DNA of 23,170 nt from an uncultured Erysipelotrichaceae bacterium (GTDB lineage: Bacteria; Bacillota_I; Bacilli_A; Erysipelotrichales; Erysipelotrichaceae): contig CAYWGS010000015.1 of assembly GCA_964457525.1 (NCBI GenBank), forward strand, positions 1-23,170, written 5' to 3'. The first letter of the stretch is position 1. The number at the start of each line of letters is the position of its first letter. Positions 7,620 through 23,155 of this stretch are shown in pieces. A program made the position numbers and the translations under genes. Below the pieces are notes generated by a model, which did no database searches, was not told where the DNA came from, and saw only the letters and a program-made list of their open reading frames with translations.

Positions 7620-8153
7620 ATGGAAATTGGACAAAGAATTAAACAATTACGTACTCAGAACAAATTGACACTTGAAGAGTTAGCAAGCCGATGTGAGTTG
7701 AGCAAAGGTTTTATTTCACAGGTTGAAAGAGATCTTACTTCACCATCCATTGCGACACTAAGTGATATTGTGGAGGCGTTAGGTATCAATCTTGCTCAGT
7801 TCTTTAAGGAAGAGCGAGAAGAAAAGCTCGTCTTTACTCAAGAGGATTTCTTTATTGACGAGAAAGAGGAATGTACGATTCATTGGATTGTTCCAAATGC
7901 GCAGAAAAATGATATGGAGCCGATTTTACTGGATTTAAAACCTGGTCAGAAATCGGATATCATTTCACCACATAATGGAGAAGAGTTTGGTTATGTGTTG
8001 AATGGAAAAGTAAGTTTAGTTATCAATAATAAGAAGTATGTTGTAAAGAAGGGTCAGACCTTCTATATCAAAGGCTTACATGATCATTACATCTTAAATG
8101 ATACGAAGTCTGATGCAAAAGTTTTATGGGTTTGTAACCCACCCATTTTCTAG
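7620..8153 (+). CDS. XRE-family HTH transcriptional regulator with C-terminal cupin domain (PuuR-like)
   Basis: The 177-aa protein has an N-terminal HTH ([35 protein letters not shown]) and a C-terminal cupin-like block ([12 protein letters not shown]...GQTFYI). Its stop codon is embedded in the potA RBS (TAGGAGG). Confidence 0.8.
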
Positions 8154-8164
8154 GAGGCACTAAT

Positions 8165-9208
8165 ATGCGTAAATTAATTGAATTCCAAAATATCGTAAAA
8201 AGCTTTAATGATAGTTTAGTTTTAAAAGGAATTAACTTATCCATCCATGAAAACGAGTTTGTTACCTTACTTGGTCCAAGTGGTTGTGGTAAAACAACTT
8301 TACTAAGAATCTTGGGTGGTTTCATCCAACAAAATGAAGGGCATGTCTATTTTGATGATATCGAAATTAGTAATGTTCCTCCATACAAACGTGAGATTAA
8401 TACGGTTTTCCAACGTTATGCATTATTCCCTCATATGAATGTGTTTGATAATGTAGCATTTGGATTACGTATTAAGAAACAAGATAAGAATACAATCGAA
8501 CAAAAGGTTAAGAAGATGTTAAAGTTGGTTAACCTTGAAGGGTATGAAGATCGTCCAGTTACATTACTTTCTGGTGGTCAGCAACAACGTGTTGCGATTG
8601 CGAGAGCTCTAGTTAATGAACCAATGGTTTTATTACTCGATGAACCTTTAGGAGCACTTGATTTAAAACTTCGTAAAGAAATGCAGATTGAATTAAAGAA
8701 GATCCAACAAGAAGTTGGGATTACGTTTATCTATGTAACACATGACCAAGAAGAAGCATTAACGATGTCGGATACGATTGTAGTTATGAATGCGGGTGAA
8801 ATCCAACAAATTGGTACACCGACTGATATCTACAATGAACCTGAGAATCGTTTTGTTGCGGATTTCATTGGTGAATCCAATATTCTTGAAGGGGTTATGT
8901 TAGAAGATTATAAAGTTAAGTTTGATGATCAAGTCTTTGAATGTATTGATTATGGTTTTGAAGATAACTTGGATGTAGATATTGTTTTACGTCCTGAAGA
9001 TATTGATATCGTACCTATTGATATGGGTCGAATCAAAGGTGTGATTAAGTCAAGTTTATTTAAAGGTGTGCATTTTGAAGTAGTGGTTGAAACACCGTAC
9101 CGTGAATGGATTATTCATACGACCGATAAAGTCGAGGTGGATAAGGAGGTAGGCTTACACTTCTTCCCTGAAGACATTCACATTATGTATAAGATGGGAA
9201 CGTACTAA
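8165..9208 (+). CDS. potA: Spermidine/putrescine ABC transporter, ATP-binding protein
   Basis: Walker A (GPSGCGKTT), the ABC signature ([15 protein letters not shown]) and Walker B (LLLDEP) are present, together with a C-terminal regulatory domain typical of PotA. Confidence 0.9.
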
Positions 9209-9209
9209 T

Positions 9210-10061
9210 ATGAAGGGATATGCAAGTTTAGTTAAACCGTATATCTTATGGATGTCGTTGTTTATCGTAGTGCCAATGTTATTAATTGTTCTCTATGCAT
9301 TTACTGAACATGGTAACTCTTTGATGGCATTTCGATTCACTCTCGATAACTTCATGCGTTTCTTTGATCCTGTATTTATTAAAGTATTATTCAAGTCATT
9401 AGAAGTTGCGATTATTACAACCGTTCTCTGTATTATTATTGGTTATCCTATTGCTTACATCATTTCTAATACAAGTGAAAGAGCACAAACGTTACTTATC
9501 TTGTTAATTACATTGCCAATGTGGATTAATATGCTTGTTCGTACTTATGCTTGGATTAGTATCTTATCCGATGGTGGTATCTTAAATTCTATCTTACAGT
9601 TCTTTGGTTTTGAACCAATTAAGATGATGTATACCGATTTTGCAGTTATGTTAGGGATGGTCTACAACTTCCTACCGTTTATGATTATCTCAATTTATAC
9701 CGTATTAGCAAAATTGGATCGTGCATTAATTCATGCTAGTCATGACTTAGGGGCGAATCCTATACAAACATTCTTAAGAATAGTACTTCCATTATCGATG
9801 CCTGGTGTTATTTCAGGGATTACCCTTGTATTCTTACCAGCGGTTAGTACCTTCGTCATTCCTAAGTTCTTAGGTGGTGGTCAGTACATGTTAATTGGTA
9901 ACTTGATTGAAAACCAATTTATTACAGTCGGTGAATGGAACTTCGGTAGTGCAATTTCACTTATTATGGTGATTATTATTATGGGTTCTATGATTTTAAC
10001 TCGTAAGATTGATCGTGATGCGTCTGACACTGCTAGTGTAGAAGGAGGTAAGCTATGGTAG
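9210..10061 (+). CDS. potB: Spermidine/putrescine ABC transporter permease
   Basis: The 283-aa polytopic protein has the EAA-type loop (HASHDLGANPIQTFLRIVLP). It starts 1 nt after the potA stop. Confidence 0.88.
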   Translation: MKGYASLVKPYILWMSLFIVVPMLLIVLYAFTEHGNSLMAFRFTLDNFMRFFDPVFIKVLFKSLEVAIITTVLCIIIGYPIAYIISNTSERAQTLLILLITLPMWINMLVRTYAWISILSDGGILNSILQFFGFEPIKMMYTDFAVMLGMVYNFLPFMIISIYTVLAKLDRALIHASHDLGANPIQTFLRIVLPLSMPGVISGITLVFLPAVSTFVIPKFLGGGQYMLIGNLIENQFITVGEWNFGSAISLIMVIIIMGSMILTRKIDRDASDTASVEGGKLW

Positions 10062-10855
10062 GGATTAAAAAACATAACTATATTAAGTTCTTTACCTTAT
10101 TCTTAGTCTTAAGCTTCTTCTATTTGCCAATTCTAAGTTTGATGATCTTCTCATTTAATGATTCGAGATCATTAACATCCTGGTCTGGTTTCTCTCTTCA
10201 ATGGTATCAAGCTTTATTTGAAAACAGAGAAATGATGACAGCGATTACCACGACGATTACGATTGCGTTAGTATCTACAGCAGTTGCGACGGTTATGGGA
10301 ACACTTGCGGCGATTGGTATTTCTAAATCACGTCGTTTGATTAAGGAACTTGTATTAAGTGTAAACAACTTTCCAATCCTTAATCCTGAAATTGTTACGG
10401 CGATTGGACTCATGTTGTTGTATTCTTCACTGAATGTTGAGAAGGGTTTTGTGACAATGTTGCTCGCTCATATCATCTTCAGTACACCCTATGTTATTCT
10501 AAGCGTATTACCTCGTTTAAGACGTTTAGACCCAGATATTGCGGAAGCAGCACTTGATTTAGGGGCAACTCCTTTACAAGCGTTGTGGAAGGTTATTGTG
10601 CCTATGATTATGCCTGGGATTGTATCCGGTGCACTCATTGCGTTTACAATGTCATTTGATGACTTCGTTATCTCTTACTTTGTAAGTGGTAATGGGGTTA
10701 AGAATATCTCTATCTTAGTGTATACGATGTCGAAACGTATTAATCCTACGATTAATGCATTATCTACAATCCTCGTCGTAATTATTACGATTGTATTATT
10801 GGTGGTAAATCTTTACCCTTATGTAGCCAAGAAAGAAATTAAGGAGGCAGAATGA
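10055..10855 (+). CDS. potC: Spermidine/putrescine ABC transporter permease
   Basis: The 266-aa polytopic protein has the EAA loop (EAALDLGATPLQALWKVIVP). It overlaps potB by 7 nt. Confidence 0.88.
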   Translation: MVGIKKHNYIKFFTLFLVLSFFYLPILSLMIFSFNDSRSLTSWSGFSLQWYQALFENREMMTAITTTITIALVSTAVATVMGTLAAIGISKSRRLIKELVLSVNNFPILNPEIVTAIGLMLLYSSLNVEKGFVTMLLAHIIFSTPYVILSVLPRLRRLDPDIAEAALDLGATPLQALWKVIVPMIMPGIVSGALIAFTMSFDDFVISYFVSGNGVKNISILVYTMSKRINPTINALSTILVVIITIVLLVVNLYPYVAKKEIKEAE

Positions 10856-11886
10856 AAAAATTAAGTATGCTAATCCTTGTCTTAGCATTTATGCTAGCAG
10901 GATGCAACAGTGAAACAAAAACATTAAAGGTATTTAACTGGGGTGTGTATATGGACTCAACCCTCATCGATGAATTTGAAGAAGAATACAACGTTAGAGT
11001 TGTTTATGATGAGTTTGATAGTAATGAATCCATGTATACAAAACTCATGAGTGGGGAGAAGTATGATGTGATTGTGCCATCGGATTATATGGTGCAACGT
11101 TTAATTGAAGAAAATCAATTACAAAAATTGGATAAGAGTGTTGTTAGTTTAGACAATGTTTTGCCAAATGTATTGAATCAAAGTTTTGATCCAAACAATG
11201 AATACAGTGCGCCTTACTTCTGGGGCAATGTTGGATTAATCTACGATACAACGCAAGTTGATGTAAATGATTTAAATGAAGGATGGAATGTTTTACTCAA
11301 TCCTAAATATAAAGGGAAGATTTACTTCTATGATTCAGAGCGTGATGCATTCTTGGTTGCGCTAAAAGCGTTAGGCTATTCCGCTAATACAAAAGTCGAT
11401 AGTCAACTCAATGAAGCATTTGATTGGCTTTCACAACTCAATACTACAATGGAACCAATTTATGTGACAGATGATGTTATTGATAATATGATTGCTGGAA
11501 ATAAAGCGATTGCAGTGGTTTACTCCGGTGATGCGGCTTATATTTTAGATGAAAATGAAGATATGGCATTCTATGTCCCTGAAGAAGGAACAAATATGTG
11601 GGTTGATAGTATGGTTATTCCTGCCAATGCTGATAATCCTGAACTTGCAAATGCTTGGATTCAATTTATGTTAAGTGAAGATGCTCAAACACGTAATACA
11701 CTTGAAGTAGGTTATTCTACTGTACATAAAGACGTTTGGGAAGCAATGATTTCAGATGAAGGGGATTATGCGGGTAATGAAGCGTATTCTGTTCGTCAAG
11801 GAAATTCAAAAGATGAAATATTTAAATATGACGAAGAGCTTAAAGTCAAAATGTCTGATTTATGGTTAAAAATTAAAGCTCAGTAA
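10852..11886 (+). CDS. potD: Polyamine-binding lipoprotein PotD, paralog 1
   Basis: The 344-aa protein has a lipobox (LAGC at aa 15-18) and PotD blocks (NWGVY, VPSDYM, PYFWG, PEEGTNMWVDSMVIPANA). It overlaps potC by ATGA. Confidence 0.88.
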   Translation: MKKLSMLILVLAFMLAGCNSETKTLKVFNWGVYMDSTLIDEFEEEYNVRVVYDEFDSNESMYTKLMSGEKYDVIVPSDYMVQRLIEENQLQKLDKSVVSLDNVLPNVLNQSFDPNNEYSAPYFWGNVGLIYDTTQVDVNDLNEGWNVLLNPKYKGKIYFYDSERDAFLVALKALGYSANTKVDSQLNEAFDWLSQLNTTMEPIYVTDDVIDNMIAGNKAIAVVYSGDAAYILDENEDMAFYVPEEGTNMWVDSMVIPANADNPELANAWIQFMLSEDAQTRNTLEVGYSTVHKDVWEAMISDEGDYAGNEAYSVRQGNSKDEIFKYDEELKVKMSDLWLKIKAQ

Positions 11887-11894
11887 GGAAATAA

Positions 11895-12938
11895 ATGAAA
11901 AAATTACTTTTATTAAGTTTAATTGCAGTATTTGCTCTTGTAGGTTGTTCTACAGCTGAAAAGAAGGTTTTAAAAGTCTATAACTGGGGTGCTTATATCG
12001 ACGAAACAGTTATTTCTGAATTTGAAGATAAGTATGATGTACGAGTTATTTATGACAACTACGATTCTAATGAATTAATGTATACCAAAATTCAAAGTGG
12101 AGAATACTACGATATCTTAGTTCCAACCGATCACATGGTTGAACGTTTAATTGCGGAAGATTTCTTACAACCACTTGATTTATCACTTATCCCTAATCTA
12201 TCAAATGTATATCCTGATTTACTCAATCGTCCATTTGATCCAAATAATGCTTACAGTGTCCCTTATTTCTGGGGTAACATTGGTATTATCTACAACACTC
12301 AAAACGTTGATGTGGCTGATTTAGAAGCAGAAGGATGGGATGTTTTAAAGAATCCTAAGTATGCAGATCGAATTTATATCTATGACTCAGCACGTGATGC
12401 ATTCATGGTTGCTCAAAAAGCGTTAGGTTATTCAGTTAATACAACAGATGAAGCAGAGATCGAAGCAGCATTTGAATGGTTAAAAGACATGAATAGTACA
12501 ACTCGTCCTATTTACATCGATGAAACCATCATTGACAACATGATTACTGAACAAAAAGACTTAGCAGTAGATTTCTCTGGTGATGCAGCTTATGTTATTT
12601 CTCAAAATCCAAATATGTCATTTTATGTTCCTGAAGAAGGTACTAATGTTTGGATGGATAGTATGATTATTCCTGCGAATGCTAAAGAAGTTGATTTAGC
12701 ACACAAATGGATCAACTTTATGTTAGAAAATGAAGTTGCGCTTAAGAATACCATTTATGTTGGTTATACTTCTCCTGTGAAATCTGCATTTGAAACAGTT
12801 ACAGGTGCAGGTGGCGATTATGAAGGTAATGTAGCGTATGCGCCTCGTATGGATAATCCATTGGATGAAGTGTATCAATACAATGATGCGTTGAAAGAAG
12901 TCTTAACAGACAAATGGACACGCGTTAAAGCACAATAG
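11895..12938 (+). CDS. potD: Polyamine-binding lipoprotein PotD, paralog 2
   Basis: The 347-aa protein has a lipobox (LVGC). It is collinear with paralog 1 along its whole length (roughly half to 60% identity by eye) and shares the C-terminal KAQ. Confidence 0.88.
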   Translation: MKKLLLLSLIAVFALVGCSTAEKKVLKVYNWGAYIDETVISEFEDKYDVRVIYDNYDSNELMYTKIQSGEYYDILVPTDHMVERLIAEDFLQPLDLSLIPNLSNVYPDLLNRPFDPNNAYSVPYFWGNIGIIYNTQNVDVADLEAEGWDVLKNPKYADRIYIYDSARDAFMVAQKALGYSVNTTDEAEIEAAFEWLKDMNSTTRPIYIDETIIDNMITEQKDLAVDFSGDAAYVISQNPNMSFYVPEEGTNVWMDSMIIPANAKEVDLAHKWINFMLENEVALKNTIYVGYTSPVKSAFETVTGAGGDYEGNVAYAPRMDNPLDEVYQYNDALKEVLTDKWTRVKAQ

Positions 12939-13118: not shown

Positions 13119-13192
13119 GGTTCCTTAGCCAAGTGGTAAGGCAATAGACTGCAACTCTGTGACCGTCGGTTCAAATCCGACAGGAACCTCCA
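13119..13192 (+). tRNA. tRNA-Cys (GCA)
   Basis: The 74-nt cloverleaf was folded by hand. It has acceptor GGTTCCT/AGGAACC, anticodon loop CTGCAAC, T-arm GTCGG-TTCAAAT-CCGAC and an encoded CCA. Confidence 0.9.
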
Positions 13193-13194
13193 AT

Positions 13195-13281
13195 GGGGAT
13201 GTGGCGGAATAGGCAGACGCAACGGACTTAAAATCCGTTGATGGCAACATCGTGTGGGTTCAAGTCCCACCATCCCCACCA
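13195..13281 (+). tRNA. tRNA-Leu (TAA)
   Basis: The 87-nt class II tRNA has acceptor GGGGATG/CATCCCC, anticodon loop CTTAAAA and a long variable arm (GATG-GCAA-CATC). Its T-arm is GTGGG-TTCAAGT-CCCAC and CCA is encoded. Confidence 0.9.
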
Positions 13282-13325
13282 TTGCATGTTTCAGAGAAGA
13301 TTTTGGTGCCTTATACTTAGACTTT

Positions 13326-13402
13326 GCGCCTATAGCTCAATTGGATAGAGCGTTTGACTACGGATCAAAAGGTTGTGGGTTCGACTCCTGCTAGGCGCGC
13401 CA
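13326..13402 (+). tRNA. tRNA-Arg (ACG)
   Basis: The 77-nt tRNA has acceptor GCGCCTA/TAGGCGC, anticodon stem TTTGA/TCAAA with loop CTACGGA, and an encoded CCA. Confidence 0.9.
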
Positions 13403-13411
13403 TAAAAAACT

Positions 13412-13488
13412 CGGGATGTAGCACAGCTTGGTAGTGCACTTGATTTGGGATCAAGGGGTCGCAGGTTCGAATCCTGTCATCCCGACCA
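13412..13488 (+). tRNA. tRNA-Pro (TGG)
   Basis: The 77-nt tRNA has acceptor CGGGATG/CATCCCG, anticodon loop TTTGGGA, T-arm GCAGG-TTCGAAT-CCTGT and an encoded CCA. Confidence 0.9.
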
Positions 13489-13506
13489 TGCAATTTTTTA
13501 TTTTAC

Positions 13507-13583
13507 GGCGGGATAGCTCAGTTGGCTAGAGCAATCGGTTCATACCCGGTCGGTCGTGAGTTCGAGTCTCACTCCCGCTACCA
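13507..13583 (+). tRNA. tRNA-Met (CAT), elongator type
   Basis: The 77-nt tRNA has acceptor GGCGGGA/TCCCGCT (G1-U72), anticodon loop TTCATAC and an encoded CCA. It lacks both the initiator hallmarks and the C4-G69/C5-G68 pairs, so I assign it as elongator Met. Confidence 0.7.
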
Positions 13584-13587
13584 ATTT

Positions 13588-13664
13588 GGACCCTTAGCTC
13601 AGTTGGTTAGAGCTGCCGGCTCATAACCGGTAGGTCGTAGGTTCGAGTCCTACAGGGTCCACCA
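13588..13664 (+). tRNA. tRNA-Ile2 (CAT, lysidine-modified type)
   Basis: The 77-nt tRNA has acceptor GGACCCT/AGGGTCC with C4-G69 and C5-G68, the TilS determinants described for E. coli tRNA-Ile2. The anticodon loop is CTCATAA. It strongly resembles the Bacillus tRNA-Ile(CAU) as I recall it. Confidence 0.65.
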
Positions 13665-13672
13665 CTTTATAT

Positions 13673-13761
13673 GGAGGAATACCCAAGCGGTTTAAGGGAC
13701 TAGTCTTGAAAACTAGCAGATGTGAGAGCATGCGTGGGTTCGAATCCCACTTCCTCCGCCA
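13673..13761 (+). tRNA. tRNA-Ser (TGA)
   Basis: The 89-nt class II tRNA has acceptor GGAGGAA/TTCCTCC, anticodon loop CTTGAAA, a long variable arm and an encoded CCA. Confidence 0.9.
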
Positions 13762-13794
13762 TATCGCTTATTTCTAAATTTATATATTATACAT

Positions 13795-13871
<77 letters not shown>

Positions 13872-13874
13872 AAT

Positions 13875-13950
<76 letters not shown>

Positions 13951-16976: not shown

Positions 16977-16997
16977 TTAAAAAGAGCTTTCGCTCTT
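16977..16997 (-). terminator. Rho-independent terminator of the TetR gene
   Basis: AAGAGC-TTTC-GCTCTT at 16982-16997 overlaps the minus-strand stop codon. On the minus strand it is followed by a T-run. Confidence 0.7.
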
Positions 16998-17601
16998 ATT
17001 TTGCATGGTTTCTGATATAGGTAGGAATACTTTGGGCAAAGAAATTAACAAATGTATTTTTAAAGCCTTCATCATTAATATCTAAAACACCTAAGGAGTA
17101 TTGTAAGGCAATACCATCGAGGGCAGCTACTAGGATTGTCGCAATCTGTTTCTGACAGGTTTCATTCTCTACCCCAAAGGCATAAAAATAAAGTTTAGCG
17201 ACTTTATCAATAATCTCCTTATAATCGAGTCGATATTTCTCTTTAATGCGTCCACCCTTACTAATGGCATAGGCTGTTAATAGAATTAAGAGTCGTTGTT
17301 CGATTTCTTTTGACATACGACTACGAACATTATTGCTTATTTCATCAAACATCGCTTGGTTTGATTTTATGTTACTATCTTTATCTTTCTCTGAGAGTTT
17401 ATGTACGAAATAAGCAGATTCTTTTACTGCGTCATAGTATAGATCATCTTTGTTTTTGTAGTGATAGTAAATCGCTCCGGTCGTAAGACCTGCATTTGCG
17501 GCTATTTCTCGCATACTTGCTTTTTCAAATCCTTGGGTCGCAAAGACATGGAGTGCTGCATCTAGGAGTTGTTTCTTAATATCGTTTGTTACTTCTGGCA
17601 T
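16996..17601 (-). CDS. TetR/AcrR-family transcriptional regulator
   Basis: The N-terminal HTH is FEKASMREIAANAGLTTGAIYYHYKNKDDL. I trimmed ORF 16996..17628 to the ATG at 17599-17601 (MPEVTND...), which has a GAGGT sequence 7 nt upstream. Confidence 0.88.
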   Translation of the reverse strand: MPEVTNDIKKQLLDAALHVFATQGFEKASMREIAANAGLTTGAIYYHYKNKDDLYYDAVKESAYFVHKLSEKDKDSNIKSNQAMFDEISNNVRSRMSKEIEQRLLILLTAYAISKGGRIKEKYRLDYKEIIDKVAKLYFYAFGVENETCQKQIATILVAALDGIALQYSLGVLDINDEGFKNTFVNFFAQSIPTYIRNHAK

Positions 17602-17674
17602 AGTTTGACCTCGATTAAAGTGTATCATAATTCACACTTTACATAAAATACTAACTTGTTTATTCATTCACATA

Positions 17675-17703
17675 TTGTAACATAACAATCGTTATGTTAA
17701 TAT
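17675..17703 (+). promoter_or_regulatory. Candidate sigma-A promoter of the hypB operon (extended -10)
   Basis: TTGTAA (17675-17680), a 17-nt spacer and TGtTAATAT (17695-17703). On the opposite strand, TGtTACAAT (17682-17674) is a candidate -10 for the divergent TetR gene. Confidence 0.55.
17678..17699. promoter_or_regulatory. Perfect palindromic operator candidate (TetR-type)
   Basis: TAACATAAC-AATC-GTTATGTTA has 9-bp perfect arms and a 4-bp spacer. It fills the space between the -35 and -10 of the hypB-operon promoter. Confidence 0.6.
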
Positions 17704-17741
17704 TATCACAACTATAGTGAATGTTCACAGAAAGAGTGTTT

Positions 17742-18410
17742 ATGACGGAGTTTAAAATTCTAACCATTAAAGAAAGTGTATTTAAAAACAACAATGAACG
17801 TGCCGATTTACTCAGAACAAGCTTAAAGAAAGATAAACGATTTCTATTAAACTTGATGTCATCTCCTGGATCAGGTAAGACGACGACTTTAACTCAAACG
17901 ATCAATCGATTGAAAGATGAAATGAAGATTGGGGTTATGGAAGCAGATATTGATTCGGATGTCGATGCACATACAATCTCAAAGACTGGAGTAAAGGTTA
18001 TCCAACTTCATACAGGTGGCATGTGTCACTTGGATGCGGATATGACGAAACAAGGTTTAGATGGATTAGGTGTGGATGAATGTGATTTGGTTATTCTAGA
18101 GAATGTGGGTAATCTTGTGTGTCCAGCAGAGTTTGATACTGGCGCAAGTAAGAATGCGATGATTTTGAGTGTTCCTGAAGGGGATGATAAACCACTTAAG
18201 TATCCATTGATGTTCTCAATTTGTGAAGTATTACTTATTAATAAGATTGATGTGATGGATGTGTTTGATTTTAATTTGGAACTTTGTATCGAGAGAGTAA
18301 AAAAGATTAATCCGAATATAAAAATTATCCCTATCTCCGCAAGAACAGGTGAGGGAATTGATGAATTTGCGAATTGGCTCAGAACAGAAGTAAGAAACTG
18401 GAAAATGTAA
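17742..18410 (+). CDS. hypB: Hydrogenase/urease-type nickel incorporation GTPase HypB
   Basis: Walker A (SSPGSGKTT), the CH metal motif (GGMCHLD), ENVGNLVCPAEFD and the G4 motif NKID are present. The start is taken at MTEFKILT (17742), and the upstream in-frame ATG at 17721 is the alternative. Confidence 0.88.
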   Translation: MTEFKILTIKESVFKNNNERADLLRTSLKKDKRFLLNLMSSPGSGKTTTLTQTINRLKDEMKIGVMEADIDSDVDAHTISKTGVKVIQLHTGGMCHLDADMTKQGLDGLGVDECDLVILENVGNLVCPAEFDTGASKNAMILSVPEGDDKPLKYPLMFSICEVLLINKIDVMDVFDFNLELCIERVKKINPNIKIIPISARTGEGIDEFANWLRTEVRNWKM

Positions 18411-18411
18411 T

Positions 18412-21102
18412 ATGGAAAATCAACAAGTTAAATTAAAAGTACTTGAATTTGCGAATAAAGTTAGTAATAAAAAAATGGGTTCTAAAGGAGCGATTACTGC
18501 AAGTGATCCACGTTATTACATCATGGAACCGGTTGTGAGTGATGAGATGGCTGAAGTCGCATTAGTGATGGAATTTAGAAAACCATTGAGTGCAGAAGAG
18601 TTATCAAAAAGATGTGGGAAATCACTTGAGTTAACTGAGAAACTTTGTTGGGAATTATCCCTCGCTGGTGTTTGTTTTGTGAATAAAAAAGATGGTGTTG
18701 ATAAGTATTGGTATGACACATGGGTTCCAGGCATTATGGAAATGATGTGTAACAATCTTGAGAATGTTCGTAAGTATCCTCAAATTGCGAAAGCATTTGA
18801 AGAATATGGACGAGTTGTTGGACCCATGTCAGTCGGTAAATTCCCAATTGGGGTAGGTGTTATGCGTGTTATTCCAATCGAAACTGCGATTCAAGGTGAA
18901 ACACGTAAAGCGTCGTATGAAGAAGTTTCTAAATATTTGAATGAAGCGAAGATATTCACAGTATCGGATTGTTCATGTCGTACATCACGTGAGGCAATCG
19001 GTGAGGGTTGTGGTCACTTAAAAGAAGATATGTGTATTCAATTGGATCATGCGGCAGAATATTACATACGTACGGGTCGTGGCAAACAAATAACCCGTGA
19101 AGAAGCGTTTGAAATCATTCGAAGAGCGGAAGAAAATGGCTTGATGCATCAAATACCGAACTTAGATGGTTCTGGTAAAACACATGCGATTTGTAATTGT
19201 TGTGGATGTTCATGTTATGCATTGCGTATCGCGTCCATGTTCAAGAATTCGGATATGGTTCGATCGAATTATGTTGCGCATGTCGATTCAGAGAAATGTG
19301 TAGCATGTGGTCAATGTGTTGAAAATTGTCCGACTAATGCGGTTAAGTTAGGTCAAAAATTAGGCACAATCAATCCAATCAAACAAGCTAAAATTGAAAC
19401 TCCACGTGATATGAAATGGGGTCCTGAGAAGTTTAATCCTGATTATCGCACCAATCGTAAGGATGTTGTGGATAGTGGAACAAGTCCATGTAAAACAGAA
19501 TGTCCGGCACATATTGCGGTACAAGGTTATATTCAATTAGCGGCTCAAGGTAAATATAAAGAAGCGTTACAACTCATTAAACATGAAAATCCTTTCCCAG
19601 CAGTTTGTGGACGTATCTGTCCACGTAAATGTGAATCCGCATGTACACGTTGTGAGATTGATAAAGCGGTCGCAATTGATGAGATTAAGAAGTTCATTGC
19701 GGACCAAGAATTGAATAGTGATACACGTTATGTTCCTAAATTAAGACATCAATATGGCAAGAAGATTGCGATTATTGGGGCAGGTCCTGCTGGATTATCT
19801 TGTGCTTATTATCTTGCGATTGATGGTTATAAAGTAACTGTATTTGAGAAACAAGAAAAACTCGGTGGTATGTTAACCCTTGGTATTCCAAACTACCGTT
19901 TAGAGAAAGATGTCGTGAATGCGGAAATTGATATCTTAAAAGAATTGGGTGTTGAATTTAAGACAGGTGTTGAAGTTGGTAAAGATATTACTCTTGATGA
20001 ATTGCGTAATCAAGATTATAAAGCATTCTATGTTGCGATTGGGGCTCAAAAGGGTCGTAAGTTAAACATCGAAGGTGAAGATCATGAAGATGTTGTATCT
20101 GGAGTCGATTTCTTACGTCAAGTTAATCTAGGGAATGCTAAGAGCCTTGACGGTAATGTGGTTGTCATCGGTGGTGGTAATGTCGCAATTGATGTAGCAC
20201 GTACAGCAGTTCGTTTAGGCGCAGCTAAAGTAGATATGGTTTGTTTAGAAAGTCGTGAAACCATGCCTGCACTCGATGAAGAAATTCATGAAGCACTCGA
20301 TGAAAATGTATCTATTAATAACTCATGGGGCCCAAAACGTATTGTGATTGAAAACAATAAAGTAGTGGGTGTTGAGTTTAAAAAATGTATTTCAGTACTC
20401 GATGAAAACAATCGTTTTAATCCAAAATACGATGAGAATAATACGATTATTATCCCTGCATCTCATGTATTAATCTCAGTTGGTCAAGCCATTGATTGGG
20501 GAAATCTCTTAGATAATACTGAAGCTGAGTTTAATCCTAATAAGACATTATGTGCTGATGGATTTACCTATCAAACCAATCATAAAGATATCTTTACAGG
20601 GGGAGATTGTTATACTGGACCACGTTTTGCGATTGATGCGATTGCGGCAGGTAAACAAGCTGCGATATCCATTCATCGCTATGTACAACCTGGACAAAGC
20701 TTGGTCTTAGGACGTGATCGTCGTGAGTATATTGCGATTGATAAAGAGAATCTTGATTTACAAGGCTATGATCGTATACCTAGAGAAAGTGTTAAACATA
20801 ACTATAAAACATCGGGTTCTGAAGCGTTTAAAGATGGTCGTTTAACCTTTACCGAAGCACAACTTAAGAAGGAAACTGAAAGATGTTTAGGTTGTGGGGC
20901 AGCGGTTGTGGATGAGTACATGTGTGTTGGTTGTGGACAATGTACAACTAAATGTAAGTTCGATGCGATTAGTTTAGTTCGTACCTATGATTCTAAAGGC
21001 GCTGGATATGAAGAGTTGAAACCACTTGTATTAAAACAGATCGTTTCGCGTGAAGTTAAAATCATTTCAAAGAATATTAAGAATGTCTTTGTGAAAGAAT
21101 AA
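18412..21102 (+). CDS. Multidomain Fe-S flavoprotein of unknown function
   Basis: The 896-aa protein has these parts:
- aa 187-268 carry 9 Cys (DCSCR, GCGH, CNCCGCSC).
- aa 296-306 are CVACGQCVENCP.
- aa 360-414 form the Cys-rich GltD N-domain (CKTECP...CGRICPRKCESACTRC).
- aa 451-459 are the FAD site KIAIIGAGPAG.
- aa 583-590 are the NAD(P)H site VVVIGGGN.
- aa 825-848 are CLGCG...CVGCGQCTTKC.
The gene starts 1 nt after the hypB stop. Confidence 0.8.
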   Translation: MENQQVKLKVLEFANKVSNKKMGSKGAITASDPRYYIMEPVVSDEMAEVALVMEFRKPLSAEELSKRCGKSLELTEKLCWELSLAGVCFVNKKDGVDKYWYDTWVPGIMEMMCNNLENVRKYPQIAKAFEEYGRVVGPMSVGKFPIGVGVMRVIPIETAIQGETRKASYEEVSKYLNEAKIFTVSDCSCRTSREAIGEGCGHLKEDMCIQLDHAAEYYIRTGRGKQITREEAFEIIRRAEENGLMHQIPNLDGSGKTHAICNCCGCSCYALRIASMFKNSDMVRSNYVAHVDSEKCVACGQCVENCPTNAVKLGQKLGTINPIKQAKIETPRDMKWGPEKFNPDYRTNRKDVVDSGTSPCKTECPAHIAVQGYIQLAAQGKYKEALQLIKHENPFPAVCGRICPRKCESACTRCEIDKAVAIDEIKKFIADQELNSDTRYVPKLRHQYGKKIAIIGAGPAGLSCAYYLAIDGYKVTVFEKQEKLGGMLTLGIPNYRLEKDVVNAEIDILKELGVEFKTGVEVGKDITLDELRNQDYKAFYVAIGAQKGRKLNIEGEDHEDVVSGVDFLRQVNLGNAKSLDGNVVVIGGGNVAIDVARTAVRLGAAKVDMVCLESRETMPALDEEIHEALDENVSINNSWGPKRIVIENNKVVGVEFKKCISVLDENNRFNPKYDENNTIIIPASHVLISVGQAIDWGNLLDNTEAEFNPNKTLCADGFTYQTNHKDIFTGGDCYTGPRFAIDAIAAGKQAAISIHRYVQPGQSLVLGRDRREYIAIDKENLDLQGYDRIPRESVKHNYKTSGSEAFKDGRLTFTEAQLKKETERCLGCGAAVVDEYMCVGCGQCTTKCKFDAISLVRTYDSKGAGYEELKPLVLKQIVSREVKIISKNIKNVFVKE

Positions 21103-21105
21103 CGT

Positions 21106-21447
21106 ATGCATGAATTAGGTGTTGTCATAGAGGTTGTTAAGACATTGGATAAAATTGTGCTAGAAAACAATCTTACAGAAGTCGAATCGATTGTATTACA
21201 AATTGGGGAAATATCATCCATGATTCCAAAGTACATTGAAGATTGTTTCGATGTGGCAATTGATGGAACACAGTTTGAGAAGACGAAGTTAAGAATTGAA
21301 ATACTTACGGCAACCGCATTGTGTCGACCATGTCATAAAGTGTTTAAACTGGTTGAGAATGAAGGCAAGTGTGATTGTTGTGGAGGAAATGATTGGGAAC
21401 TCTTAAGTGGGAAAGAGTTCCTAATCAAAGAGATTGTCGCAAGGTAG
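21106..21447 (+). CDS. hypA: Nickel metallochaperone HypA
   Basis: The 113-aa protein has the N-terminal MHE nickel-binding motif (MHELGV) and a zinc site (CRPC ... CDCC). It starts 3 nt after the preceding stop. Confidence 0.88.
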   Translation: MHELGVVIEVVKTLDKIVLENNLTEVESIVLQIGEISSMIPKYIEDCFDVAIDGTQFEKTKLRIEILTATALCRPCHKVFKLVENEGKCDCCGGNDWELLSGKEFLIKEIVAR

Positions 21448-21453
21448 GAAATT

Positions 21454-22146
21454 ATGACTGAATTAAATACATTATTATATACTGCATTTTTTATTGGAAC
21501 TGTTCACACTTTAATTGGTGTCGATCATTATTTACCATTCGTTGTTTTATCCAAATCAAATAAATGGTCAATTAAAAAGACAATGATGATTGTCTTTGTG
21601 TGTGGAATAGGCCATGTATTAAGTTCCATAATATTAGGTTTTGTAGGATTAGGTATTAGTTCAAGTTTAAGTACACTTGTAGGAATTGAAGATATAAGAG
21701 GTACTTTTGCGACGTATTTCATCATTGTTTTTGGTTTAGTTTATACCATTTATGCTTTACGTAAGCTCTATCTCAATAAACCACATACTCATATCGTAAA
21801 TGGTCAAGAAATAATCCATGATCATCATGAACCTAAGAGTATTGAGGATCATGTTCATAAGAATAATAATCTGGTATGGGGATTATTTATCTTATTTGTA
21901 TTAGGTCCTTGTGAACCTCTTATTCCAATCTTAATGTATCCTGCCGCAACATTAAATTTAGGTGCACTTATCAGTGTAACCCTTGTCTTTAGCGTTAGTA
22001 CCATTAGTATGATGATTGGGTTAACCTATTTAGGAGTTAAAGGTTTAGATTTTATTAAGATTAAGCATTTAGAAAAGTATGGTGAAACATTAGCGGGTTT
22101 GGCGATTACATTGTGTGGTGTCTTAATGATTACCATGGGAATATAG
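21454..22146 (+). CDS. HupE/UreJ-like (or NicO-like) secondary Ni/Co transporter with a His-rich loop
   Basis: The 230-aa protein has about 6 TM segments. TM1 carries the motif HTLIGVDH, which fits the HupE/UreJ H-x3-G-x-DH pattern. The central loop (aa 109-136) has 7 His (KPHTHIVNGQEIIHDHHEPKSIEDHVHK), and the second half has GPCEP. Confidence 0.6.
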   Translation: MTELNTLLYTAFFIGTVHTLIGVDHYLPFVVLSKSNKWSIKKTMMIVFVCGIGHVLSSIILGFVGLGISSSLSTLVGIEDIRGTFATYFIIVFGLVYTIYALRKLYLNKPHTHIVNGQEIIHDHHEPKSIEDHVHKNNNLVWGLFILFVLGPCEPLIPILMYPAATLNLGALISVTLVFSVSTISMMIGLTYLGVKGLDFIKIKHLEKYGETLAGLAITLCGVLMITMGI

Positions 22147-22168
22147 ACTTAGTCTATGGGAGGAATCT

Positions 22169-23155
22169 ATGTTTGTTTTTAACACTTTAGAGGGTGGAAA
22201 CTTTCTAGCCGCATTTAGTATGTGGATTGTTGTGTTTGTTTGTCTATTCGTCTTTAATGAAGTTGCACGACGTTTTAAATGGATGGGTTTCTTTAGTTTT
22301 GTGGTTTTACCTGTCATTCTTACGATCATTTGGTTTACAGTGATGAAAGAGACGACCTATACGGATTGGTTTCATCTTGCGAAGGTTTATTCCGCAACGG
22401 CAGGATCCATTGGTTTCTGGCTTATTCGTCATTATGAGAAAAAAGATAAATCTGGAAATGTTGTTTGGAGACTTGCGACCAATAAAATCGCATTGTGCTT
22501 TCCTCCTCTTATCTTAGCCATCAATATTTTAGAAGCAGTAGCACGTGATATCGAAGTTGGTTCAACTTTCTGGATGATCAACTCTGGTGCGATTGAAGGT
22601 GAAATTATGGGTGTCTTAGGTGGCCCATGGAATTACATGAATGCGATTGCGGGTATCTTAAATATCATTACGATTACAGGTTGGTTTGGAATTGTGATTC
22701 GTAAGATGTCAGATAAAGATAAAAGTCGTGATATGTTGTGGCCAGATATGTTGTGGTTTTGGATCTTAGCTTATGATATCTGGAACTTTGTCTATACTTA
22801 TAACTGTATTCCAACACATTCATGGTATGCAGGATTAGCTTTATTAATCGCTCCAACACTTTGTGCATTTACTGTTGGTAAAGGGGCTTGGCTCCAACAT
22901 CGTGCCGCAACACTCGCAATATGGTGTATGTTCGCTCAAACTTTCCCATTATTTCAAGATACAGGGAAGTTTATGGTTAGCTCATCCTATAATCCAACTA
23001 TTTATACCATCTTAGGTGCGTTATCCTTATTGGTAAATCTTGCGGTATTTGTTTACATGATTATGAAATTTAAACAAACTAAACGTAATCCATATAAAGC
23101 AGAACTCTATGTGGATCATTCAGAATACAAAGCAATTAAAGCTCTAGCAGAATAA
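22169..23155 (+). CDS. Polytopic membrane protein of unknown function (about 9 TM segments, Trp-rich)
   Basis: The 328-aa protein has a GGGAGGA RBS 6-7 nt upstream. It has nine hydrophobic segments and 16 Trp. I recognise no catalytic or transport motif. It is the last visible gene of the hypB operon, 22 nt after the permease. Confidence 0.8.
   Translation: MFVFNTLEGGNFLAAFSMWIVVFVCLFVFNEVARRFKWMGFFSFVVLPVILTIIWFTVMKETTYTDWFHLAKVYSATAGSIGFWLIRHYEKKDKSGNVVWRLATNKIALCFPPLILAINILEAVARDIEVGSTFWMINSGAIEGEIMGVLGGPWNYMNAIAGILNIITITGWFGIVIRKMSDKDKSRDMLWPDMLWFWILAYDIWNFVYTYNCIPTHSWYAGLALLIAPTLCAFTVGKGAWLQHRAATLAIWCMFAQTFPLFQDTGKFMVSSSYNPTIYTILGALSLLVNLAVFVYMIMKFKQTKRNPYKAELYVDHSEYKAIKALAE

Follow-up and report, generated by a model that had tools for sequence, protein, structure and literature searches.

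hypB and hypA bracket a putative Fe-S flavoprotein reductase of the IsrA family in an Erysipelotrichaceae-like bacterium

The window, by which we mean the whole stretch of DNA analyzed here, is a 23,170-bp chromosomal contig of low GC content (~35%) from an Erysipelotrichaceae-like bacterium. Near its end, five genes follow one another on the plus strand with gaps of 1, 3, 6 and 22 nucleotides (nt), and encode HypB, an 896-amino-acid (aa) iron–sulfur (Fe-S) flavoprotein, HypA, a permease with a His-rich loop and a DUF5692 membrane protein (Table 1). Open reading frame (ORF) coordinates and profile searches confirmed an earlier reading of the same DNA from its letters alone (hereafter the sequence-only reading), which had described five co-directional genes at these spacings behind a promoter that faces a TetR gene, with the flavoprotein gene between hypB and hypA. 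The start codons of the two divergent genes are ambiguous: in other assemblies hypB codes for 222 aa (from 17742) and the TetR gene for 201 aa (from 17601), against 229 and 210 aa for the longest ORFs.

Table 1. Features of the cassette and its control region, in window coordinates
Feature	Position	Strand	Basis or remark
TetR-family repressor gene	16996..17628	-	TetR_N 59.3 bits; divergent from the five-gene operon
Promoter-like site GTAACA-18 nt-TATTAT, putative function	17677..17706	+	consensus scan, 9/12 matches
Candidate TetR operator, perfect palindrome TAACATAAC-N4-GTTATGTTA	17678..17699	.	overlaps the promoter-like site
hypB, G3E GTPase nickel chaperone	17721..18410	+	TIGR00073 253.6 bits; likely true start 17742
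IsrA-family Fe-S flavoprotein, 896 aa, putative reductase and HypAB client	18412..21102	+	Pfam domains
N-terminal domain, aa 1-290: winged-helix-like start, then Cys-rich region	18412..19281	+	no Pfam family
Putative catalytic or nickel site: C187, C189, C208, C261, C263, C268 + H246 + C200, C264, C266	18970..19215	+	
NfnB/GltD-like core, aa 357-760: two [4Fe-4S] clusters, FAD, NAD(P)H site	19480..20691	+	Fer4_20 + Pyr_redox_2
C-terminal Cys motifs C825, C828, C838, C841, C844, C848	20884..20955	+	invariant alignment columns; Fer4_21 match
hypA, putative nickel metallochaperone	21106..21447	+	PF01155 97.6 bits; motifs in translation
His-loop permease, DsbD_2/NicO-like superfamily, putative Ni(/Co) transporter	21454..22146	+	DsbD_2 28.8 bits
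DUF5692 membrane protein (~9 transmembrane segments), conserved cassette accessory	22169..23155	+	PF18948 384.9 bits

HypB scores about twice the TIGR00073 cut-off of 121.2 bits, and its translation contains SSPGSGKTT (Walker A), GGMCHLD and NLVCPAEF. Among solved structures the closest is that of H. pylori HypB (PDB 4LPS, E 1e-44), with which the CH and C(P) nickel ligands are aligned. HypA, well above the PF01155 cut-off of 28.9 bits, starts with MHE and holds a Cys4 zinc site composed of C73-x2-C76 and C89-x-C91-C92. The translations thus agree with the sequence-only reading, in which the Walker A, CH and VCP motifs of HypB and the MHE N-terminus and two Cys-pair zinc motifs of HypA had been called intact. 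In its HypB GTPase fold and nickel ligands, and in its HypA MHE and Cys4 zinc site, the pair resembles the HypA/HypB that mature [NiFe]-hydrogenase and Helicobacter urease. In contrast to those systems, the present locus has no hypCDEF, hydrogenase or urease, and its chaperone genes bracket a flavoprotein gene. Pfam scans of the remaining window ORFs of at least 80 aa revealed no hydrogenase, hypCDEF, urease, CO dehydrogenase/acetyl-CoA synthase (CODH/ACS) or LarA, as had been read from the letters for hydrogenase, urease, CODH and LarA, and no known nickel enzyme was found in the 8 kb downstream of the window on the longer contig L001 either.

The flavoprotein contains a Fer4 domain (aa 290–311), a Fer4_20 domain (aa 357–436), a Pyr_redox_2 domain (aa 451–747) and a C-terminal Fer4 (Fer4_21, aa 831–855), and it misses every cut-off of the NCBIfam whole-protein models. 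Residues 357–760 align over the full module with NfnB, GltD and the N-terminal module of dihydropyrimidine dehydrogenase, with E values of 1e-52 to 1e-103 against PDB entries 9BOV, 8OH5, 9N5U, 4YLF, 5JCA and 1GT8. Those enzymes differ from the window protein and its operon in having neither an N-terminal Cys-rich domain, nor a split ferredoxin module, nor nickel chaperones. Outside this core, a split 2×[4Fe-4S] ferredoxin module is suggested by C296/299/302/306 and C838/841/844/848, presumably as its paired halves. More than 8000 homologs of the flavoprotein were found; in the top 120, lengths are about 892 aa and identities to it 71% or higher.

The N-terminal domain of the enzyme, residues 1–290, matched no Pfam family. 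Related domains fall into 1822 clusters at 50% identity and occur either fused to the flavoprotein or as stand-alone proteins of about 350 aa. We aligned the domain of the window protein with those of 28 divergent family members (n = 29). Six cysteines, C187, C189, C208, C261, C263 and C268, are kept in 28–29 of the 29 sequences, fused and stand-alone alike, and H246 in 27. Three further cysteines, C200, C264 and C266, co-vary as a triad, being present together or absent together, and are found in 21–24 of the 29. The idea that this triad is a nickel site and predicts linkage to HypAB was discarded, given two triad-less members with adjacent HypA (P0297 and P0285) and a triad-bearing one without hyp genes (P0304); P0285 has, besides its adjacent HypA, two cobW-family genes. 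A Foldseek search of the domain model against the PDB returned winged-helix folds that match aa 1–100 only (E ~5e-3).

Flavoprotein relatives are present in at least 517 species genomes. For synteny analysis we took the best 80 of these, one genome per species, in which the flavoprotein is 68–95% identical to that of the window and which span Bacillota, Chloroflexi, Deltaproteobacteria and Spirochaetales. Neighbors within 3 kb of the flavoprotein gene were counted by tblastn. The search for co-occurrence of these homologs with hyp genes gave a clear enrichment, with hypA found in 76 of the 80 species, hypB in 72 and both in 71. In 69 species hypB is adjacent to and co-directional with the flavoprotein gene, and an independent count by ORF clustering agrees, giving hypB–enzyme–hypA as the standard order. 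Hence the bracket is conserved far beyond chance. HypA is still adjacent in clades whose N-terminal domain is just 33–45% identical. HypB itself is 64–97% identical across the phyla; HypB and flavoprotein identities are correlated (Spearman 0.37, p 0.001). Because the bracket is conserved in 71 of 80 species of four phyla, the flavoprotein is the likely object of the two chaperones, and on this genomic evidence we consider it probably the HypAB client. The annotation names of cassette proteins and divergent representatives were uninformative, and the downstream neighbors of the cassette in ten species are mostly unrelated housekeeping or mobile genes. A divergent member without hyp genes (L097, 8712–11231) is arranged otherwise: two ferredoxin-like genes (~415 aa, weak Fer4_6 matches) lie 3' of its flavoprotein gene, and MMPL, DUF1302 and DUF1329 genes lie 5' of it.

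The closest described system is that of IsrA (VUZ27132.1), the 901-aa putative isoprene reductase of Acetobacterium wieringae ISORED-2 (Kronen et al. 2023, PMC10134865). Compared by published description, both proteins are about 900 aa long. In each, an unannotated N-terminal domain holds a Cys6 site that includes two CxC motifs, the FAD/NAD(P)H core is NfnB-like, and there are four canonical [4Fe-4S] sites; adjacent hypA and hypB genes without a hydrogenase are common to both as well. Matched in the same way, the six near-invariant cysteines of the window protein correspond to the Cys6 "cluster V" site of IsrA, at which Kronen et al. proposed that nickel is bound (PMC10134865). In that strain isoprene induces IsrA with two HypA, one HypB and a ferredoxin, and its genome has neither a [NiFe]-hydrogenase nor hypCDEF, its LarA and CODH/ACS having their own maturases (PMC10134865). 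Two 2026 preprints further report that isoprene raises hypA 373-fold and hypB 585-fold in Pelotomaculum, which also has [NiFe]-hydrogenases. Strain Y, the host strain, reduces conjugated dienes only (PMC9765523). The isr operon differs in its order, isrA–hypA–hypB–ferredoxin–hypA, in its stand-alone paralog of the N-terminal domain and second hypA, and in lacking the TetR, DUF5692 and permease genes that the window has. The window matches, again by description, the Acetobacterium cluster II type, or "clade 9", with its TetR and hypothetical protein. Its flavoprotein shows the clade 9 traits, namely an unannotated N-terminus of ~270–290 aa, an NfnB-like core, a C-terminal ferredoxin motif and a Cys6 site with two CxC motifs. 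All four typical neighbors are present as well; among 988 clade 9 homologs their co-occurrence in a neighborhood network was 0.73 for HypA, 0.56 for HypB, 0.40 for DUF5692 and 0.21 for TetR (PMC10134865). We thus assign the window cassette to the IsrA family with high confidence. The sequence-only reading had raised the possibility of a previously undescribed nickel system; this did not hold, since the same proposal and the same neighborhood were published by Kronen et al. (PMC10134865). The window is a new case of the uncharacterised TetR/DUF5692 subtype, and the HypAB-client idea is already in print.

The two remaining genes of the operon encode membrane proteins. The permease carries the His-rich loop HTHIVNGQEIIHDHHEPKSIEDHVH; it gave no match to the NicO family even at E 1, and its relatives are annotated variously as NicO, RcnA or TauE. 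Such a permease lies beside the cassette in 6 of the 80 species, all belonging to the Erysipelotrichaceae-like lineage of the window. In four Clostridium species a CbiM-PDGLE/CbiQ/ATPase importer adjoins the cassette instead, and in four other species an FmdE + FecCD ABC system. These three types appear to be interchangeable, lineage-specific solutions that would carry metal inward. As unrelated importers replace one another across lineages, their swapping supports a transition-metal requirement of the cassette, and does not separate nickel from cobalt.

The last gene product was assigned to DUF5692, far above the gathering cut-off of 27 bits for PF18948. In the literature searched, this family is mentioned in Kronen et al. 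2023 alone. Its AlphaFold2 (AF2) model shows about nine long helices (predicted local distance difference test score, pLDDT, 63.5), in keeping with the ~9 transmembrane segments expected from the letters, and a Foldseek search with this model found nothing under E 0.09. The invariant polar residues include those of TYTDWFH, DMLWPDMLWFW and GKGAWLQHRA. A DUF5692 gene lies near the flavoprotein gene in 57 of the 80 species. Two paralogs per cassette occur in Terrisporobacter, Paraclostridium and Faecalimicrobium (L034, L049, L065 and L069), one being divergent and located upstream beside a second TetR type, the other located between the flavoprotein gene and hypA.

The sequence-only reading had the operon behind a single promoter facing the TetR gene, and a consensus scan indeed found one promoter-like site, of putative function, as the sole such site in the 92-nt TetR–hypB intergenic region. 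The palindrome overlapping it keeps its arms, with a variable 4-nt spacer, in the TetR-linked loci L011, L012, L014, L021, L028 (C. sporogenes) and L066 (C. amylolyticum). The arms are thus common to seven TetR-linked loci, window included, and a related variant is seen in Chloroflexi loci. Conserved arms around a free spacer are the expected signature of a TetR operator, so that the palindrome is a good candidate for one. TetR orthologs 61–88% identical to that of the window occupy the same position in L011–L015, L021, L028 and L066. In the whole set, a TetR gene is near the cassette in 13 of the 80 relatives, and divergent GntR/FCD regulators, which also match FadR_C, are found at 30 of 81 loci (80 species and the window).

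As for the substrate, several neighbors in the relatives point tentatively to fatty acids. A 420-aa gene, upstream and co-directional in 12 of the 80 loci (Tissierella, Vallitalea, Alkaliphilus and others), matches end to end the P. acnes isomerase PAI (2B9W, E 3e-55). This polyunsaturated fatty-acid isomerase converts linoleic acid into a conjugated diene. Furthermore, a CYP152 fatty-acid peroxygenase gene lies 3' of hypA in C. argentinense and Clostridium sp. UBA6640 (1IZO, E 1e-189), an acyl-CoA dehydrogenase fusion is encoded near the C. sporogenes cassette, and an oleate hydratase adjoins the A. woodii homolog (PMC10134865). Two species that carry the cassette, C. sporogenes (L028) and P. 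bifermentans (L049), convert linoleic acid via c9,t11-conjugated linoleic acid (CLA) to vaccenic acid (Verhulst 1985, reviewed in PMC12254105). A literature search found no link between the cassette and CLA reduction or biohydrogenation. In the proposed saturation of one conjugated-diene bond, and in the PAI homologs linked to the cassette in relatives, the system resembles biohydrogenation by PAI and the CLA reductase (CLA-R) of Butyrivibrio. We tentatively suggest that a conjugated fatty acid such as CLA may be the substrate of this very conserved subclade. In six loci (L043, L053, L059, L061, L083 and L088) an energy-coupling factor (ECF) transporter S component of ~180 aa and/or a small S-adenosylmethionine (SAM) methyltransferase of ~197 aa is encoded 3' of hypA; the linoleate-isomerase homolog is upstream in all six, in L059 at ~4.3 kb, beyond an ABC importer.

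Gene content, motifs and the conservation of synteny and of the candidate operator are observed here; from them we infer a putative model for this cassette, covering nickel insertion into the flavoprotein, direction of metal transport, electron path and substrate. The cassette would be self-contained and TetR-repressed: TetR would sit on the AACATAAC-N4-GTTATGTT operator over the promoter until released by a hydrophobic substrate. HypB, as the GTPase, and HypA would then load nickel into the N-terminal Cys-rich site, with metal supplied by the His-loop permease. In the cytoplasmic 896-aa enzyme, electrons from NAD(P)H would enter at the NfnB-like FAD domain, possibly with a role for ferredoxin, and run through the four [4Fe-4S] clusters to the Cys-rich site, where a hydrophobic conjugated diene would have one of its double bonds saturated. 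DUF5692 may assist at the membrane by handling the lipophilic substrate. If the substrate were a conjugated dienoic fatty acid, the enzyme would perform a step of anaerobic polyunsaturated fatty-acid (PUFA) biohydrogenation. As a whole, the explanation we favor, with moderate confidence, is an NAD(P)H-driven Fe-S flavoprotein under TetR control that is matured by HypAB and saturates such a diene at one of its double bonds.

A number of observations weigh against this model. HypA reaches 70.2 bits against TIGR00100, under the equivalog cut-off of 88.1, and solved HypA structures match it weakly (E 3e-3), so that its metal specificity could differ. A nearby hypB is missing from 8 of the 80 loci, and both chaperones are missing from one divergent member. 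AF2 modeled the N-terminal domain poorly (mean pLDDT 62, Cys loops disordered), so that the site gains no structural support. On the substrate side, Pfam scans of the window ORFs revealed no isomerase, hydratase or other lipid gene, in which the window differs from the PAI pathway, and the fatty-acid link comes from relatives that are ~70% identical. A CLA reductase of Butyrivibrio fibrisolvens, much smaller at ~53 kDa, was reportedly purified and sequenced by Fukuda in 2007, and may be an unrelated enzyme already in this role.

Competing explanations concern the client, the metal and the substrate. The sequence-only reading had offered two accounts of the operon, a satellite nickel supply for an enzyme encoded elsewhere, or a new HypAB client in the form of either the flavoprotein or the terminal membrane protein; of these, the flavoprotein as the client is favored. 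HypA and HypB are the canonical chaperones of hydrogenase and urease, Pelotomaculum has [NiFe]-hydrogenases too, and our observations cover the window and 8 kb downstream rather than the remaining genome, all of which would suit a supply operon for a hydrogenase, urease or CODH elsewhere with the flavoprotein as a mere passenger. Such an account is nevertheless very improbable in view of the bracket kept around the flavoprotein across four phyla, the co-variation of HypB and flavoprotein identity, and A. wieringae ISORED-2, which has the arrangement without a [NiFe]-hydrogenase or hypCDEF and serves its other nickel enzymes with their own chaperones (PMC10134865). We give equally little credence to DUF5692 as the nickel client or a catalytic component, for example a membrane-bound isomerase like the linoleate isomerase purified from C. 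sporogenes. The membrane helices of DUF5692 are rich in invariant His, Asp and Cys, which would fit, as would its presence in 57 cassettes, but the 23 of 80 cassettes without DUF5692 (~29%) keep hypAB, which makes it an unlikely client, and divergent clades retain HypA without it. Nor does DUF5692 replace the soluble PAI homolog as a membrane isomerase, an option ruled out by the presence of both in 7 of 9 loci. With the flavoprotein as the client, its metal is the next point in dispute. G3E GTPases serve several metals, CbiM/CbiQ carry cobalt besides nickel, the permease annotations are mixed, and HypA falls under its equivalog cut-off; a HypA/HypB-like pair might thus mature the flavoprotein with Zn, Co or Fe, or assemble its unusual Cys-rich cluster. 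We regard this as improbable, because HypB stands at twice its equivalog cut-off with the nickel-binding CH...C motif kept and HypA retains the nickel-binding MHE N-terminus. Nickel is somewhat favored as the metal.

The same enzyme may instead act on a non-fatty-acid substrate, such as isoprene, 1,3-butadiene, a terpene such as myrcene, sorbate or another conjugated compound of anoxic habitats. The physiology of the family is documented for isoprene and butadiene only, Chloroflexi and Deltaproteobacteria of groundwater and sediment are among the carriers of the cassette, the window lacks lipid genes, and TetR and FadR-like regulators respond to many hydrophobic ligands. However, the Acetobacterium clade 9 homologs are 47–49% identical to IsrA; A. 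woodii and A. wieringae DSM 1911 have clade 9 homologs only, without an isr operon, and DSM 1911, the one tested, showed no isoprene reduction (PMC10134865). The recurrent linoleate-isomerase homolog, CYP152 and oleate hydratase genes also speak for a fatty acid. A substrate outside the fatty acids is in our view possible rather than likely.

Known nickel enzymes are few, and to our knowledge the proven clients of HypA/HypB are just two, hydrogenase and Helicobacter urease. If the proposal is true, a third client would be a real gain for metallobiochemistry, especially as it would occur in at least 517 species and reduce unactivated conjugated double bonds. Should the fatty-acid lead hold as well, a gene would be assigned to a reaction that influences the composition of fat in ruminant products and lipid metabolism in the gut, within a pathway whose enzymes are still poorly resolved (2026 review). 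The strongest form of the proposal, in which the cassette is the missing conjugated-diene reductase of anaerobic PUFA biohydrogenation and at the same time founds a new class of nickel–Fe-S flavoproteins, matured by HypA/HypB without HypCDEF and hydrogenating unactivated C=C bonds, is speculative and in our view rather unlikely. Given that C. sporogenes, a cultured isolate species, has an orthologous cassette with the same TetR and the same operator, the nickel and substrate questions are directly testable.

The rest of the window encodes an aldolase, a PduL-type phosphotransacylase (PTAC), a radical SAM protein, sugar-phosphate enzymes, a thioredoxin, a polyamine-type ABC transporter and a RimO/MiaB-type methylthiotransferase (UPF0004-radical SAM-TRAM). 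Nine tRNA genes (Cys, Leu, Arg, Pro, Met ×3, Ser and Phe) are clustered at 13119–13950 and account for a local rise of the GC fraction to 0.46; an Rfam scan of the window found nothing beyond them. At 7620–12938, a cupin-HTH regulator gene lies 5' of the ABC transporter operon, which has two tandem paralogous solute-binding proteins (10852–11886 and 11895–12938). Downstream of the cassette on L001 are genes for arginine/ornithine decarboxylase, spermidine synthase and agmatinase, and polyamine genes therefore flank the cassette on both sides. Directly 3' of the window end, a type III toxin–antitoxin-like unit (L001 9751–10467) combines a strong promoter (TTGACA-16-TATATT), a ToxI-like 37-nt tandem repeat of 2.2 copies (9798–9880), a terminator-like hairpin (9883–9905) and a ToxN-family toxin gene (9928–10467).

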